From positions 1,922,001 to 1,986,000 of the forward strand of contig JBNRSN020000086.1 of NCBI GenBank assembly GCA_051313645.2: 64,000 nucleotides of DNA, in the 5' to 3' direction. Shown piece by piece: positions 19,605 to 44,630 of the stretch. Made by a program: the position numbers and the translations under genes. The notes below the pieces were generated by a model. It did not search any database, was not told where the DNA came from, and saw only the letters and a program-made list of their open reading frames with translations. Every line of letters starts with the position of its first letter. Within the stretch, counting starts at the first letter, position 1. The stretch is from Centroscyllium fabricii. Taxonomy: Eukaryota.

Positions 19605-20606
19605 TAATAATAATAATAATAATAATTCAACTTTATTGTCATTATACAGGTTGAGCACCGTTAATCCGGTAACCGAATAGCCGGCAGCTTCAGTCTGCCG
19701 GCACAAATTGCCCCGACTGCACTGCGCATGCGCAAAATGGCAGCCGCCATCGTGGCTTCAACGAATGATCTGCGCATGCGCTCGGCGCATGCGCAGATCA
19801 TTCAAAACAGCTGCGGGTGTTTTGAATGATCTGCGCATGCGTCGCCGGAAGGTTAGCGCATGCGCAGATAATTCAATACGGCCGCCGGTTATTTTATCGA
19901 TAACTGTAATTGAAGCCATGATGTGGAGGTGCTGGTGTTGGACTGGGATGGACAATTGTAAGAAGCCACACAGCACCAGGCTGTAGTCCAAAAGTCCCAC
20001 TCGAAATCACAGGGCCTTCGGAGCGCTGCTCCCCCATCACCTGACGGGGAAGCGGCGCTCCGAAAGCCCGTGACCCCAACTAAAACCGTTGGACCACAGC
20101 CTGGCGCCGTGTGACCTCTTACAGAGCAAAACGGGATTGGATAAATTCCCCGCGCCACCCTCCTTTCCCCCCCCCCCCCCCGGACCCGCGCCTTCCTCCT
20201 CCCCCCCCGGACCCGCGCCACGCCACGCCACCCTCCTGCCTCCCCCCGCAAGACCGGCCTTTCACTGCTGCCCGACAGCCCTAAACGGAACGCCACAAAA
20301 GCCTGAGCCCATCAAAAAACTTCGCGGCGGCCAATATTGGACGATCTGCGCATGTGCGCGCCAGCCAATACCAATGTTGCGCGCATGCGCGCTGCCATTG
20401 TGACTGGTGCGCATGCGCAGTGTCCAAACTCGTTCTCCCGGTTTTTTCCATTTCCCGGCACGGGCCTGGTCCCGCCCGTGCCGGATTAACGGTGCTCAAC
20501 CTGTACAATGTACAAGTACATAAACAACGAAATGTGATCTTGCAAGCTCCCAAGAGTCCAGCAAAGCCGCTGCGTCTGTGCGCGCCGCCATTCCATCTTT
20601 CCATCT
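19605..20606 (-). mobile_element. Very short Rex1/Babar-derived non-autonomous retroelement, split by a MITE
   Basis: The minus strand reads atggcggcgcgcacag...gggagcttgcaagatcacatttcgttg...tgta[MITE]taatgacaataaagttgaa(tta)n. It is homologous to the Rex tail at 25260-25330. Possible tcata TSD within the CR1 endonuclease. Confidence 0.6.
19647..20503. mobile_element. Tigger/pogo-like MITE containing a Penelope-type palindrome (19912-20123)
   Basis: TA TSD and perfect TIR caggttgagcaccgttaatccgg. Confidence 0.88.
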
Positions 20607-23100: not shown

Positions 23101-23303
23101 AATGTGGAGGTGCCGGTGTTGGACTGGGGTGGACAAATGCAAGAAGTCACACAACACCAGATTATAGTCCAACAGTTTTATTTTAAATCACAAGCTTTCG
23201 GAGCTTTTGCCCCTTCGTCAAGGTGAAAGAGAGACTCTTTCACCTTGACGAAGGGACAAAAGCTCCGAAAGCTTGTGATTTAAAATAAAACTGTTGGACT
23301 ATA
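23101..23303. mobile_element. Penelope-type inverted terminus (hairpin) with a hammerhead-like motif in each arm
   Basis: Near-perfect palindrome 23163-23303 centred on gaaagagagactctttc. Arm motif tcac-cttgacga...ctccGAAAgcttgtga. Confidence 0.75.
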
Positions 23304-36529: not shown

Positions 36530-37770
36530 CTGCATGAAAATGTTTCTGCTCATCTCTCCTCTTTTTCTTTTGTCAATGACCTTAAATCTGTGTCCTCTGG
36601 TTACTGACCCTCCTGCCAGTGAAAACAGTTTCTCCTTATTTACTCTATCACAATCCTTCATAATTTTGAACCCCTCTATTAAATCTCCGTTTAACCTTCT
36701 CTGCTCCAAGGGGAACAATCCCAGCTTCTCCAGTCTCTCCACATAACTGAAGTCCCTTATCCCTGGCATCATTCTAGTAAATCTCCTGTGCAAACATTAA
36801 AAGGCTTTGATATCGTTCCTAAGGTGGTGCCCAGAATTGGTCACAATACTCCGGTTGGGGCCTAACCAGTGATTTATAAAGGTTTAGCATAACTTCCTTG
36901 TGTTTGCACTCTCTGCCTCTGTTTATAAAGCCAAGGAATCCCATATACTATTTTAACAACCTTCTCAACTTGTCCTGTCACCTTCAAAGATTTGTGTATG
37001 TACACCCCAAGTCCTCTCTGTTCCTGCACCCCCTTTAACATTGTACTATTTAGTTCATATTGCCTCTCCCCATCTTTACAAAATGTATCACTTCACACTT
37101 CTCTGCGTTAAATTTCATTTGCCATGAGTCTGCCCATTTCCCCAGTCTGTCTATGTCCTCCTGAAGTCTGTTACTACCCTCCTCACTGTTTTACTACATT
37201 TCCGAGTTTCGTGTCATCTGCAAACTTTGAAATTATGCCCCCAACATCCAAATCCACTGTATTAATATACAGATTGAGCACCGTTAATCCGGCACCCTCG
37301 GGATCAGGCCGGTGCCGGACCATTGAAAATTCCGAACCCCTGAAGGTTCGGGGGGAGCGCGCGGTAGAACACTCCCCGGGTCCCGGAGCGCGCGGTAGAA
37401 CACTCCCCAGGGCCCGGAGCGCGCGGTAGAACACTCCCCAGGGCCTGGAGTGCGTGGTAGAACACTCCCCGGGAGAGAGCCCGGGGATAGAACAGTTAGA
37501 GAACCTAAAAAAACAGAAACCCAAACGCCCGACGACTTCAGCGTTCACTCACCTTTCGCGGGAAACGGCGGCGCCGCCGAGCGGCTGCTCCGCAAAATGA
37601 AGCTGCCCGACCATCGGGTGCCATATTACCGGTGCTCAACCTGTATATTGAACAGAGCAGTGGTCCCAAAACCGACCCCTTGGAGACACCACTGTATACT
37701 TCTCCCCAGTCTGAAAAACAACCATTCACCACTCCCCTCTGCTTTCTGTCTCTTAGCCAATTTTGTATCC
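36530..37770 (-). mobile_element. CR1 RT fragment interrupted by a MITE
   Basis: SGVSKGSVLGP|ISKFADDTKL...RRLNGDLIE. Confidence 0.85.
37270..37643. mobile_element. Tigger/pogo-like MITE with a different internal 30-bp repeat
   Basis: TA TSD and TIR. Four copies of ggagcgcgcggtagaacactcccc. Confidence 0.8.
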
Positions 37771-38059
37771 ATTTGGCTTATTTGCATATTATTCTTACTT
37801 GGCAGATCTAATATAATGGAATCAGTACAGCTATCTCAAGGGGATTGTTGCAATTCTCCTTGAATTATTTAATGCTTTTTCTTTATAAACAGTGCAGCGT
37901 GTGAGCTGCTAGCTACAAGAGCTAGCTAACTGCACCGTGCGTGGCATTTAGTCTGGCAAGTTGTTTGGGTTAAAGGTTAAGCAGGGAGCGACGGTCTGAC
38001 AATACATTTCCATTGTCAGCGGACTAGGTTCCAGCCTGCGATTGGCTGGCTAGGTCGAT

Positions 38060-38490
38060 GGTGTCATCTGTGGCTCAGTGGGCAGCACTCTCACCTGTGA
38101 GTCAGAAGGTATGAGAGATCAAGTCCCACTCCAGAGCACATAATCTAGACCAACACTCCCGGTGCTGTACTGAGGGATGCTGTACTGTCGGAGGTGCCGT
38201 CTTTCGGATGAGACATTAAACTGAGGCCCCGTCTGCTCTCTCAGACGATCCCATGGCTATTTCGAAGAAGAGCAGGGAGGTTATCCCTGGTGTCCTGACC
38301 AACCTTTATCCCTCAACCAACACCACTAAAACAGATGATCTGGTCATTATCACGTTGCTGTTTGTGGGAGCTTGTTGCGTTTCCTACATTACAACAGTGA
38401 CTACACTTGGAAAAGCACTTAATTGGCTGTAAAGCACTTTGGGACATCCCGAGATTGTGAAAGGCACTGTATAAATACACGTCTTTTACT
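38060..38490 (+). mobile_element. SacSINE1-like DeuSINE
   Basis: tRNA head plus Deu domain. Confidence 0.8.
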
Positions 38491-38544
38491 TCTTTCTGAC
38501 TGGCTGCCAACTTAGATTCACAGCCAAGATTCGTACCAGCGCTT

Positions 38545-39172
38545 GGATGCCACGGTAAACCTCAATACTTGGTTGGCGAGGTACACCTTAATACTTGGTT
38601 GCCGAGATACACCTCAATGCTTGGTTGCCGAGGTACACCTCAATGCTTGGTTGCCAAGGTACACCTCAATGCTTGGTTGCCAAGGTACACCTCAATGCTT
38701 GGTTGCCGAGATACACTTCAATACTTGGTTGGCGAGGTACACCTCAATACTTGGTTGGCGAGGTACACCTCAATGCTTGGTTGCCGAGGTACACCTCAAT
38801 ATTTGGTTGGCGAGATACACCTCAATACTTGGTTGGCGTGATACACCTCAATGCTTGGTTGCCGAGGTACACCTCAATACTTGGTTGGCGAGATACACCT
38901 CAATATTTGGTTGCCGAGGTACACCTCAATACTTGGTTGGCAAGGTACACCTCAATACTTGGTTGCCGAGGTACACCTCAATACTTGGTTGCCGAGGTAC
39001 ACCTCAATACTTGGTTGGCGAGATACACCTCAATACTTGGTTGGCGAGGTACACCTCAATACTTGGTTGACGAGATACACCTCAAGACTTGGTTGGCGAG
39101 GTACACCTCAATATTTGGTTGCTGAGGTACACCTCAATACTTGGTTGGCAAGGTACACCTCAATACTTGGTT
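38545..39172. repeat. 26-bp minisatellite, left part (about 24 units)
   Basis: Unit gaggtacacctcaatacttggttgcc with variants. Confidence 0.95.
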
Positions 39173-39578
39173 AAACATAGAAACATAGAAACTAGGAGCA
39201 GGAGCAGGCCATTCGGCCCTTCAAGCCTGCTCCGCCATTCAATGAGTTCATGGCTGATCATCCAAACCCAGTATCCCGCCCCTGCCCTCTCCCCATATCC
39301 CTCGATCCCTATCGAGCCTGCATCAACACATATCCCACCTTATCCCCGTAACCCCACATATTCAATCCCCCTAACACTAAGGGTCAATTTATCCTGGCCA
39401 ATCAACCTAGCCCGCACATCTTTGGACTGTGGGAGGAAACCGGAGCACCCGGAGGAAACCCACGCAGACACGGGGAGAATGTGCAAACTCCACACAGATA
39501 GTACCCGAGGCTGGATTTGAACCCGGGACTCCAGTGCTGTGAGGCAACAATGCTAACCACTGTGCCACCGTGCCGCCC
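39173..39578 (-). mobile_element. HE1-like V-SINE, full length
   Basis: Complete head to (atgtttct)n tail. Not hypermutated. Confidence 0.9.
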
Positions 39579-41780
39579 TGCGTAGGCAATGGTATCATTA
39601 AAACAGATCCGGAAAGACCTCGCCCGCCCCAGGAGCTCCCTCCACCCAACAATCCGGCCCCCCTACGTCGGGCCCTCGGTCCGCCCGTACACTACGCCAA
39701 ATGGACTCCCAACCCCCCAGACAAAATTCAACCCCTACTGAACGCCAGAACATCTCCGCTGGGAACAGTGGCCGCCGCAGCCTTCAACCCCCTCAAAAAA
39801 CAGTCGGAGAAAGCGACTCCCCACCCCATCAACGAGGACCCCCCCCCCCGTAGTCGAATGCGACGCCCCGGAGGTGGCGATCCCGGCCACTGTAAACCAG
39901 CAAGGCCGTCCTGCAGCACCCATGTCCAGGACCCCACAAGGCGCCGAGATACACCACCCCCCGGCCGAGAAGAAAGCCACAGCCATCACAGAGGTGGCAC
40001 GGAAGTGGAACCACTTCCCAGCTCGCCGGCACCCCACACTAACCACGGACCAGCGTCCAGCCGCCCCCACGCTCGACAACCGAAAGTGAACCAAAATCAA
40101 GAACAACAAAACACAGCTTCGGAGGACGGAACTGGCCCCCCCCAGCTACACCACCCACCATCGACCTGGCAAGGAGAACGCGACCCGGATACCCCCACAC
40201 GAGCACTCCGCTCCGCTACGTCACCCTCCACTCCCACAGACATCCACGATGGACCGTGCCATCCCGGCGCGACTCGCATGCCACACTTCATGCGATCACG
40301 GAATCTCCCACTCTCCACCGGAGACACGAAGAAAATGTGCTCCGAGTGCCGAACCCGTGCAGAACCGAAACCCCAGCTCCCCTGCCCCCCAGATGGTGCG
40401 CTCACACACGCAACCCAACCGATGCAACGACCCAGCACCGACTCCAAGGGCCCACCGCCCTCCTCAACACGGAACACACGTCTGCTCACCATGATCGACG
40501 AACATCCACGATCTCCGTCCGCCCTCCCCCGCTCCAACACGCCGGCATCCACAGCAACCAACTGCCCCGAGCAAGCACTTTCTCTCTGTGGCATGGCGGC
40601 CCACACCCACCCAGATCGGGGCCCATCCCCCACGCCAAGCGAACTCAAGGACTACCCCTCAGAACGGGGAACCGCGACAAGCAAAACAACGCCACACCAT
40701 CCCATCGGAAACGGACAGGCAGAGAGACACAACAGCACCACCTGGAATTCCGTACGTCCTGCCCCAAGATCCCAGGGCCCACCAAACCAGCAATGGGAAG
40801 CAGTGCCCCCAGATGCACCGCACTCCCCACGGTCCCCTCCCTCCACAGCCACAAACACGACACCGCACGAACGGCTCCCCAGACTCCAGCGTCGCTCATC
40901 CCACGGGGCATCTCCTCCGCCACGGCTAACCACTCCCGGACCCGCACCGCTCCGAAGATACGCCCGGACATCCAAAGATGACCCCCTCGTGGACGAGATC
41001 GAACTAACCGATGTCAACCCCACCTATGCCCACATACGTTATCCCGACGGTCGAGAGTCTACCGTATCATTACGGGACCTGGCACCCTGCCCACCAGGAC
41101 CTAGAGGGACACCAAGTGTTAATATCCCACCAGGGGCCTCCAGGGACCCACCGGGCACCACCCTCCAGGACCGCGACCTGACACCAACCAACCCTGCGCC
41201 GGTAGAATCCCACACCCGAAGCCACGACCCGCCAAGCACCCCCCTCCAGGACACTGACCAGACCCCAACCGACTCCAAGCCCGCGGGGGCCCGCACACGG
41301 AGCCATGATCCTCCCGGTGCCCCACGCCAAAGCGCCAACTGGCCGCAGACCAGCTCTGCGCCTCCCCCCGACCAGGGACAGACCAGCCCTGCGCCAACCG
41401 GAGCTCGCACGCGGAGCCATGATCTCCCCGACCCCCCACAGGGCAATCCAGGCCACGCAGGTTCCGACCAGTGGCCAACAGCAGGCAAACTGTCCAGAGA
41501 CCCAGACACCGTCCAAATGGGCAGACCATCGACCCAGCAACGAGAACTCAAACGGGTGCGACGACTCCTTGTTCGGCCACTCCGGAATAAAAAGAAGATT
41601 CCCGCCTTCCAATTTTGTAGGAGGGAAGAATGTGGTGATACCGAACAAACATTCGGGGGAAGGCTGAATGGTGAACTCTGTACATGTCACTTCCTGTGCC
41701 CAGATAGCATAAATACTGGAACTGCTCAGTATGGGGTGGATGCTTCACCTGGAAGCATGGTAAAACCCACCTCTGCAAAT
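39579..41780 (+). pseudogene. Ty3/Gypsy pol fragment (RT end, RNase H, integrase) + PPT + start of 3' LTR; T->C hypermutated
   Basis: Restoring C->T recovers RRALGLF..YYAKWIPNF, ECDAS, EKKATAI, TDQ, IDFKGP, HSDRG and TPYHPIGNGQVER. NPTYAHIRYPDGRESTVSLRDLAP is intact. PPT aggagggaagaa is followed by TG at 41631. Confidence 0.9.
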
Positions 41781-42704
41781 TGTGACAATATAGTGGATTA
41801 CAACTTTACTTTAAAGTTATTGATGTATAAGACTCATCTATCACATCAATACCCATGCTGATGGAATAGATGGCATGTGAAATTGAGACGGCAGAAGCAT
41901 TCGGTCAATGGTGAGAGAGGTAATGAGGTCAGACTGGATGAAAATTTGTGTAAATAATTGCAGCATGGTGAATCTGTTGTGAAAATGCAGTGAGGAAGAG
42001 CTTGTGGCTGAGGGAAGATATCTCTAAGGTGGGAGCTTTTACTTTACATTTGAAGCTGTCAACTCAACAGCTGATTCAATGGTCACTGAACTCATGCCTC
42101 AGCTTGACAAACATGGTCCACGACAACCTGGACCCCATGGGTGAGCTGTCAAATGCAAAAGGTAAGCTGAAAATCATTTTTAAGTGGCTCTAAGCAAGCC
42201 ACTAATTATCTGAATTGGATCCCCTGCCACTGCGTGTCGGATCTACTCAGCGCTGACAGACCCGACATTGGGAAAGTCGTGTGGCGGTGGGTTCACAGCA
42301 GTGTCGCAACTCACTGCGGGAAAAAACACTTTCCCACCCGGCTCGCCACCGATCGCACCCGCTGACCCCCAGAAAATTCCGCCCTAAGTAATTACTCCCC
42401 AAGTCACAATGATTGATATGGCTATCTCAGAACACTACCTCGTCTCCCTTACTATTCACAGCTTCCTGGCTCCAACTCTGCTGACTTCACCCTCCCCCCT
42501 GGAAAATATTCCACACCTAGCCACTTCACCAATACAATCTGTATTCACCTCTCTTCACCCCTCCAGACATCGCTTGGCCGTTGACTAACTGAACAGCATC
42601 CTTTTTTGTCTTCAATACACTAATTCCTGCCAAGTCACTCACTATCTCTTAGCATCATTATTCACCATATTCCCTCCTTTGCACGACTGAGTTTGAGAGC
42701 CACA

Positions 42705-43183
42705 TTGGTTGGCGAGATACACCTCAATACTTGGTTGCCGAGGTACACCTCAATACTTGGTTGGCGAGGTACACCTCAATACTTGGTTGGCGAGATACAC
42801 CTCAATACTTGGTTGCCGAGGTACACCTCAATACTTGGTTGCCGAGGTACACCTCAATGCTTGGTTGGCGAGGTACACCTCAATACTTGGTTGCCGAGGT
42901 ACACTTCAATACTTGGTTGCCGAGGTGCACCTCAATACTTGGGTGCCGAGGTACACCTCAATACTTGGTTGGCGAGGTACACCTCAATGCTTGGTTGGCG
43001 AGGTACACCTCAATACTTGGTTGGCGAGATACACCTCAATACTTGGGTGCCGAGGTACACCTCAATACTTGGGTGCCGAGGTACACCTCAATACTTGGGT
43101 GACGAGGTACACCTCAATACTTGGTTGCCGAGGTACACCTCAATACTTGGTTGGCGAGGTACACCTCAATGCTTGGTTGCCGA
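42705..43183. repeat. 26-bp minisatellite, right part (about 18 units)
   Basis: Same unit and orientation as 38545-39172. Confidence 0.95.
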
Positions 43184-43387
43184 GAAAGGCACTATTTCTT
43201 GGCTGTCAAGGTTCGGACTTGCCGGGAGGGGGGTGCAAGATGATGGCTATGATTAGCTGTGAGTGTGTGACGGAGAGAAACATAATAAACCTGAGTGATG
43301 TTCTGTGAAATACGAGGCTCCATCACCTGAGTGCCATTGGAGGCTAAGTATGATTTTAACCCAAGAGCGCATAATGCGTTTGTATGA

Positions 43388-44630
43388 ATCGTGCCTGACC
43401 AACCTGATAGAATTCTTTGAAGAGGTGACCAAGTGTGTGGATGAGGGAAAGGCGGTTGATGTCATATATATGGACTTCAGCAAGGCGTTCGACAAGGTCC
43501 CGCACGGTCGACTCATGAAGAAAGTAAGGAGTTGCGGGGTAAACAACGAAGTGGTGGGATGGATTGAGAACTGGTTGGCTCAGAGGAAGCAAAGGGTAGT
43601 GGTAGAGGGCCAATACTCGGGTTGGAGACCGGTCACCAGTGGGGTACCACAGGGGTCGGTGTTGGGGCCACTACTATTTGTAATCTTTATCAATGACTTG
43701 GAGGAGGGGACTGAGGGGTGGGTCAGCAAATTTGCGGATGACACAAAGATTGGGGGAGTAGTGGATGAGGAGGAAGGAAGTAGAAAGATTCAGAGGGATA
43801 TAGATAGGATGCAGAGCTGGGCTGAAGAATGGCAAATGGAGTTCAACACGGGGAAATGCGAGGTGATGCACTTCGGTAGGGCAAATAGGAAGAGGGAATA
43901 TAGGGTCAACGGCAGGGTTCTGAGTGAAGCAGAGGAGCAAAGAGATCTGGGAGTATATGTACACAGATCATTGAAGGCTGCCACCCAGGTGGACAAGGCA
44001 GTAAAAAAGGCCTATGGTGTACTGGCCTTCATCAACAGGGGAATAGAGTTTAAGAACCGGGAGGTCATGCTGCAGCTGTACAGATCACTGGTGAGACCAC
44101 ACTTGGAGTACTGTGTGCAGTTCTGGGCACCGTACTACAGGAGAGATGTGGAGGCGCTGGAGAGGGTGCAGAGGAGATTCACCAGGATGTTGCCGGGAAT
44201 GGGGGGAAAGTCGTACGAGGAGAGGTTGAGGGAGCTGGGACTCTTCTCCCTGGAACGGAGAAGGAAGAGGGGGGACTTAATAGAGATGTTTAAAATGATG
44301 AAGGGGATCGATAGAGTAAACGTGCAGAGACTGTTTCCCCGGGTGGGAAGAATGACAACAAGAGGGCACGAGCACAAGATTCAAGGAGGAAGATTCAGAA
44401 GGGATGGCAGGGGCAAGTTCTTTACGCAGAGAGTGGTCGGGGAATGGAATAGGCTACCATCTGAAATAGTGGATGTGGACAGTCTGGGTGCTTTTAAAAG
44501 GATGATAGATAGGTACATGGAGGGGAAGGAAGAGTAGGGGGGACAGGAAAAATCAGAGACAGACTAAGCGCGGCACTACATTGAGGGCCCAAGGGCCTGT
44601 ACAGTGCTGTATGTTCTATGTTCTATGTTC
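43388..44630 (+). mobile_element. Young 5'-truncated CR1 LINE (uninterrupted RT ORF to 44537)
   Basis: [13 protein letters not shown]...FADDTK...MEGKEE* and (atgttct)n tail. Confidence 0.93.

Follow-up and report, generated by a model that had tools for sequence, protein, structure and literature searches.

A probable retrocopy of a hyper-edited antisense Gypsy RNA within a minisatellite of Centroscyllium fabricii

Adenosine-to-inosine editing is held to stay in RNA, and whether its products can be written into heritable DNA is the question raised by a 3.5-kb block in a 64,000-nucleotide stretch of the Centroscyllium fabricii genome (contig JBNRSN020000086.1, positions 1,922,001 to 1,986,000 of the forward strand; referred to here as the window). 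The block interrupts a 26-bp minisatellite, contains part of a Gypsy long terminal repeat (LTR) retrotransposon and a short interspersed element (SINE), and is strongly T-poor and C-rich on the plus strand at about 39600-41600. A first-pass annotation had proposed that it arose from one retroposed chimeric RNA bearing edits. The block is a copy of a segment on contig C1044 of the same genome, and in its making a read-through RNA probably folded on an inverted Gypsy, was hyper-edited by ADAR and was copied by a CR1-type long interspersed element (LINE) from its SINE tail into a germline minisatellite; were this so, RNA edits would have become heritable DNA.

The limits of the insert were as first annotated. 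TTGGTT is present at both ends of the block, and excision of the intervening 3532 bp (39173-42704) together with one TTGGTT restores a unit identical to others in the array, such as that at 38999; in so periodic a target, a 6-bp duplication of TTGGTT is indistinguishable from a 20-bp target deletion. Both junctions are clean, with neither filler nor microhomology. A search of the genome with 41780-42704 gave one other full-length match among the best 40 of 5826 candidates, at C1044:226182183 and 99% identical, and the best other match to 40950-41780 was the stretch adjoining it. The segment is thus not single-copy, and the source that the annotation had suggested seeking is found beside it: the Gypsy at C1044 is unedited and carries the same SINE at the same Gypsy junction as the window. 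Aligned to the whole block, G000:C1044:226179577-226183108 was colinear and 91.5% identical over 3533 columns with two 1-bp gaps, and the 23-letter SINE-Gypsy junction motif (at most one mismatch) was found at exactly two places in the genome, the donor and the window. The donor is without minisatellite at either end and the search gave no second full-length copy of the window's left flank (37700-38560), from which it follows that the window is not a second haplotype.

A complete Gypsy stands at C1044: its two LTRs are 95.5% alike, it has an ATACC duplication, and the multi-copy host repeat that it splits is present in both halves, the left half matching 9 of 10 sibling copies and the right all 10, and comparison with these siblings showed the host repeat to be interrupted by the Gypsy at the source only. 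As the source keeps both LTRs, the ATACC duplication and both halves of the host repeat, and the window holds merely a fragment of this nest, the C1044 locus is the donor and the direction of copying is clear. Comparison with 27 family loci shows that the SINE inserted into the source Gypsy with an 8-bp target deletion; this happened earlier, and the SINE was then carried to the window as part of one molecule rather than inserted there independently.

Read on the minus strand, the block consists of flank (42704-41849, 99% identical to the source), LTR, antisense Gypsy RNase H/integrase region and a 405-bp SINE whose tail lies at the junction. This order had been annotated correctly, except that the LTR, described as partial, is whole (218 bp) and is followed by the source element's own ATACC duplication; 41780-41848, previously taken for miscellaneous DNA, is LTR. 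A putative "Harbinger-like" end found no support in a constant TAA flank among six sibling copies. Of the two routes offered for the chimeric RNA, 5' transduction of one continuous transcript fits, and a template jump is excluded by the colinearity of the alignment. The frames at about 39600-41600 are presumed, from their motifs, to be the Gypsy RNase H/integrase region; the frame at the source locus matched Pfam rve (E 3.6e-17), and that of the edited copy gave no match in the same search. As the integrase signature has been erased by the editing, the insert is probably neutral. The SINE, which differs from the source by four changes other than A>G, is putatively HE1-like. ARAGORN found no tRNA gene in the window, and Rfam gave no match in 39510-43300.

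Differences between copy and source run almost entirely in one direction. Source T became window C at 275 of 299 differing positions, an A>G excess on the minus strand and hence, as first annotated, on the strand of the SINE; no other class exceeded 6, and the 24 remaining differences amount to 0.7% of 3532 positions. All but one of the 275 changes (referred to below as edits) lie inside Gypsy sequence. None of 75 editable sites was changed in the SINE, and the first 440 and last 810 copied bases are without any A>G change. Along 39578-41630, the edited share in successive segments was 0/8, 222/369 (the core, 39619-40972), 5/14, 0/19, 35/63 (41128-41500) and 4/26, followed by 8/69 in the LTR (41631-41848) and a single T>C among 222 sites in the flank (41849-42704). 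Edited share depended strongly on the minus-strand 5' neighbour, with 75/120 (62%) for U, 90/138 (65%) for A, 60/150 (40%) for C and 50/159 (31%) for G (p = 2e-10), and less on the 3' neighbour (G 53%, A 55%, U 44%, C 39%; p = 0.03). Depletion of 5' G is described as an ADAR signature in PMC2873906 and PMC3197674, and five A_deamin loci were detected in the genome (22 exon matches on five contigs).

Comparison with 46 loci of the element's own subfamily (45 distinct), whose substitution spectra are symmetric, places the changes in the copy. At the 274 edit sites covered, the commonest letter of the family was T at 261, C at 11 and another letter at 2. Two edits altered a T private to the source, and 30 of 33 source-private letters other than T are also present in the copy. 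By these alignments the A>G changes are derived in the copy, the family letter being ancestral. A genome search with the edited core gave no second edited copy among the best 40 of 3502 candidates.

Examination of the 130 kb around the donor showed an inverted Gypsy of a sister subfamily (C1044:226163805-226171413), placed head-to-head relative to the source element at a distance of about 2.7 kb. Most of the source element can be aligned with it, at 74-80% identity, the figure being 78% over the whole edited zone and 70% in the LTR. Edits stop at the end of the Gypsy, thin out where this neighbour aligns worse, and rise with local identity to it (50-nt windows, Spearman 0.19, p = 3e-6). Adenosines facing a cytidine are preferred by ADARs. 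Within 39619-40972, at sites where the own family has T, the edited share was 47/57 where the neighbour's facing base was C, 152/276 for U, 6/9 for A and 6/9 for G, in agreement with the favoured A-C configuration reported in PMC526178. The excess was significant on permutation within codon-position and neighbour strata (20,000 shuffles, p = 1e-4 to 3e-4), and persisted where at least 95% of own-family copies have T (40/48 versus 133/255) and without TG contexts (33/41 versus 114/205). Seven unrelated Gypsy copies used as mock partners, imperfect controls in that they are more distant (58-62% identity) than the real neighbour, gave no C excess (53-63% edited facing C, 59-68% facing T). The element's own sense RNA was also considered as duplex partner and rejected, in that it would be expected to have paired with the SINE too, yet the SINE is unedited. 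The region C1044:226115001-226245000 is a dense Gypsy cluster in both orientations, with several LTR pairs 96-100% alike and CR1 and SINE insertions, and could give many potential long inverted-repeat RNAs.

At the other end of the process, the minus-strand end of the insert lies at most 2 nt from the end of the SINE tail repeats, and donor Gypsy sequence past the tail was not copied. The last 80 or so bases of the SINE align closely to three LINE 3' ends that we take to be CR1-type from motifs in translations (the frames upstream of them can be read as CR1 ORF2); no Pfam match was obtained with the C-terminal frame. The tables of PMC3747384 list stringent 3' recognition, and the shark V-SINE HE1 is described there as sharing its 3' tail with HER1. 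From this end point at a tail shared with CR1 LINE ends, we infer that a CR1 reverse transcriptase did the copying. If the duplex formed in cis, priming would have occurred at an internal tail, or after cleavage near it, and hyper-edited RNAs can be cut according to PMC3197674. At its 5' end the insert may be truncated. Upstream of the donor are LTR elements on the same strand, the nearest at about 10.7 kb, which to judge from their placement could supply read-through transcription.

The proposed route would begin with the arrangement present at the source, a full Gypsy with a SINE inside it, 2.7 kb from a head-to-head sister-subfamily Gypsy of 74-80% identity. A minus-strand transcript of at least 19 kb crossing both elements would form a long imperfect hairpin with the SINE looped out, and ADAR, to which the signature points, would deaminate some 60% of the adenosines where pairing was best and leave SINE and flank untouched. 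CR1 ORF2 protein would then recognise the looped-out tail and prime on a nick in the minisatellite, inosine would be read as G, and reverse transcription would stop 855 nt past the LTR. The expected product is one with clean junctions and an apparent 6-bp duplication, as seen in the window.

Several observations weigh against this account. The 3' G preference at edited sites is weak, and the 96-bp unedited gap at 41032-41127 has no explanation. Sites with C in several own-subfamily copies are also edited more often (15/20), few partner-private sites fall at editable positions, and the sister-subfamily copies are 97-98% alike; cis and trans pairing therefore cannot be separated by sequence. The two LTRs of the inverted neighbour differ at 2 of 248 positions, making it about the same age as the copy, so that its presence at the time of editing is compatible with LTR divergence but short of proven. 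The paired parts lie 14-18 kb apart, though the arms start only 2.7 kb apart, and editing of human Alu pairs is reported in PMC526178 to drop steeply with distance. Nine sibling SINEs have both ends, and in none of them does a duplication exceed 4 bp; the junction at the SINE tail lacks microhomology. Given these siblings, the TTGGTT duplication neither proves nor denies CR1 insertion. Three causes of the unedited gap were tried and rejected: local folding of the minus-strand RNA on itself (z -1.4 to -2.2, as in the edited neighbours), partner identity (0.81-0.84 there), and conversion from another family copy, unlikely in that two source-private letters are kept. A bound protein may have left the gap as its footprint, or the donor may have converted this stretch back.

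The closest alternative, though unlikely, keeps the same route and has the RNA pair in trans with sense RNA of the abundant sister subfamily, the transcript possibly ending at or near the SINE tail. It would dispense with internal priming, would suit a neighbour as young as the copy, and would leave the same A-C signal, other sister copies being 97-98% identical to the neighbour. Under it, the own subfamily, at 92-96% identity, should be the commoner partner, whereas the signal follows the 78% sister type that lies inverted next door, and intermolecular Alu editing is put at about 1% or less in PMC526178. Quite unlikely, too, is an event in which endonuclease-independent or repair-linked reverse transcription, instead of canonical target-primed insertion by CR1, filled a double-strand break in the minisatellite with a copy of the edited RNA. 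A minisatellite target, a footprint that could equally be a 20-bp deletion, and sibling SINEs without clear duplications would all agree with such repair, but neither junction has the filler or microhomology of a patch, and an end within 2 nt of the SINE tail in a locus of many kilobases points to tail recognition.

Very improbable is that duplication of the DNA came first and that its adenosines were changed afterwards, either by deamination while the DNA strand was part of an RNA:DNA hybrid or by an unknown DNA mutator. ADARs can act on DNA in hybrids at A-C mismatches, and copy and source are colinear with no spliced-out parts; the idea requires an RNA of 78% identity to have formed a hybrid of 2.2 kb, with conversion of about 60%, does not account for the end at the SINE tail or the duplication, and faces an edit polarity that matches the SINE's RNA strand. 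Reverse transcription made error-prone by unbalanced nucleotide pools, a jump between separate template RNAs, or an assembly artefact, the last favoured by the small size of the window's contig (C1444, 3.5 Mb) and by junctions that rest on the assembly rather than on reads across them, are extremely improbable and largely refuted by the change-free first 440 and last 810 copied bases and the ADAR-like 5'-neighbour and A-C biases, by the one continuous source locus, and by edited 31-mers in the contigs of four runs, respectively. These runs (one study, two samples, one of which may be the assembly's own, so that they count as samples rather than as established separate individuals) contained 41-45% of 203 sampled 31-mers of 39620-41500, the donor shares 4.2% of all 31-mers of the edited part and family loci add almost none, making an artefactual origin of the edited sequence unlikely. 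A further run, X5, with a share of 0.07, was left out of account; the runs listed as containing the sequence include none from RNA, which has no bearing on whether it is expressed. The insertion itself would have taken place in the germline.

Compared with known systems, the copy left by the proposed hyper-edited read-through RNA resembles ADAR hyper- and ultra-edited inverted-repeat RNAs in its dense one-strand A>G clusters, 5' G depletion, nearby inverted partner and A-C sites (as described in PMC3197674, PMC526178 and PMC2873906); those are known there from RNA or cDNA, whereas here the changes have been fixed in the DNA of the genome, and the partner, an LTR element, is 78% identical and has arms kilobases long. 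With the well-known APOBEC DNA-edited LTR retroelements it has in common a deaminase scar on a retroelement kept in a vertebrate genome, but the copies treated in PMC4866542 carry sense-strand G>A, the screen there having selected against A>G, whereas the present change is antisense A>G (only 5 G>A on the Gypsy sense strand against 275 T>C) in an insert not bounded by LTRs. Its ends are a SINE tail and host flank, neither LTR ends nor LTR-element parts, unlike an insertion by an element's own integrase. It likewise differs from the LTR-mediated retrocopies of PMC5131818, also RNA-based duplications involving an LTR element in a non-mammal, in which host mRNA is flanked by LTR-element parts through template switches; in the present insert no switch is seen, and the Gypsy travelled as antisense cargo. 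As for V-SINE HE1 with HER1 in PMC3747384, the SINE 3' tail is common to a CR1-type LINE and the insert ends at it, though the template would be a long read-through RNA with 3.1 kb of upstream sequence rather than a SINE transcript.

Transductions of 5' sequence are known for SVA and L1. In these, as in Alu-aided processed pseudogenes (PMC5199112, which connects L1 retrocopies with embedded SINEs), a host transcript can be copied by a LINE enzyme thanks to the SINE within it; L1 recognises poly(A) in a relaxed manner, whereas a stringent-type CR1 tail and RNA edits are involved here. The window indicates that host read-through RNA with a SINE inside it can be copied, by way of that SINE, by a LINE of the stringent, tail-recognising kind, a means of producing retrocopies without L1. 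The part that editing by ADAR plays in how retroelements (Alu) evolve is called undetermined in a 2016 review (PMC4982230), and no editing was found in the engineered, expressed L1 RNA reported in PMC5224506. A literature search confined to the main texts of openly accessible papers gave no account in which a germline-fixed retrocopy of an ADAR-hyperedited RNA was described together with its donor. Hypermutated (A>G) avian retroviral proviruses are an older, virus-borne precedent. Taken singly the components are known; what is new is their combination, in a case where the donor and the type of partner are resolved. Donor, type of duplex partner, edit signature and copying handle can all be read in one genome, making this RNA-to-DNA route directly testable. 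Such edited copies may be undercounted, being too diverged for ordinary repeat comparison and selected against in G>A screens.

Table 1. Coordinates of the insert, its target and a further element with a one-change patch (window positions unless a locus is named)
Feature	Position	Strand	Remarks
26-bp minisatellite, left arm (target site)	38542..39172	+	From the repeat reading of the window
TTGGTT, left copy of apparent 6-bp target-site duplication	39167..39172	+	Not beside the source segment
405-bp SINE, unedited	39173..39577	-	(CTATGTTT)n tail is the 3' end of the insert; tail common to CR1 LINE 3' ends
Gypsy RNase H/integrase region and 3' tail, putatively hyper-edited (A>G on minus)	39578..41630	+	Antisense to the proposed RNA
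Unedited gap within edited zone, 96 bp	41032..41127	.	0/19 sites edited; two source-private letters kept
Whole 218-bp 3' LTR, lightly edited	41631..41848	+	TG...CA; matches both LTRs of the source element
Source flank, 5' end of the insert	41849..42704	.	ATACC duplication, right part of multi-copy host repeat (to ~42390), flanking DNA beyond
TTGGTT, right copy of apparent 6-bp target-site duplication	42705..42710	+
26-bp minisatellite, right arm	42705..43184	+	From the repeat reading of the window
MITE-like element	19645-20506 (patch 19913-20124); also L136:523-1402, L022		Terminal inverted repeats, TA flanks; many copies, 93-97% alike

Recurrence of such one-way change was scanned for by comparing 953 kb of sequence with the window, the 130 kb around the donor and another 41 stretches (404 kb). 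There were 304,928 bases with at least two other copies, and 25 of 2435 windows of 200 bp were dominated by one change: 17 in the 3.5-kb block, two at 19901-20200 of the 64,000-nucleotide window, one in L136 and five with G>A or C>T. The last five (L132:3101, L134:1901, L143:7801 and two near the donor, with 9-10 of 14-16 differences of this kind) are probably CpG decay. Those at 19901-20200 and in L136 belong to a single family resembling miniature inverted-repeat transposable elements (MITEs), with 38 near-full-length members at 93-100% identity among the best 40 of 3059 candidates. The patch within it is a 210-bp piece of a near-perfect hairpin repeat and, relative to five free copies, shows 22 of 56 T changed to C and 8 of 57 A changed to G, the T>C sites favouring a minus-strand 5' U or A (16/26 versus 6/29, p = 0.003). 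Judged from this pattern, the patch is a probable second edited RNA fixed in DNA and then multiplied, a reading under which the 8 A>G changes have no explanation.

Whether ADAR-hyperedited RNAs have been written back repeatedly, with CR1 reverse transcriptase seizing long transcripts by an embedded SINE tail and some products, such as the MITE-like family, multiplying afterwards, is evenly balanced on the present evidence. If true, RNA editing would be a recurrent and so far uncounted source of heritable mutation in CR1-rich vertebrates, and each copy would record, for one molecule, how RNA folded in the germline over distances above 10 kb. The hairpin repeat from which the patch derives is dispersed, about 210 bp long and near-perfect (L066:3600-3815, L119:8839-9052, L140:3258-3456 and window 23101-23303), with a minimum free energy of -147 kcal/mol for the L066 copy, and would be an ideal substrate for ADAR or Dicer. 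The tail repeat that ends a CR1-type LINE fragment on the plus strand at 43370-44630 of the window is 7 bp long (TATGTTC), where that of the SINE has 8 bp.

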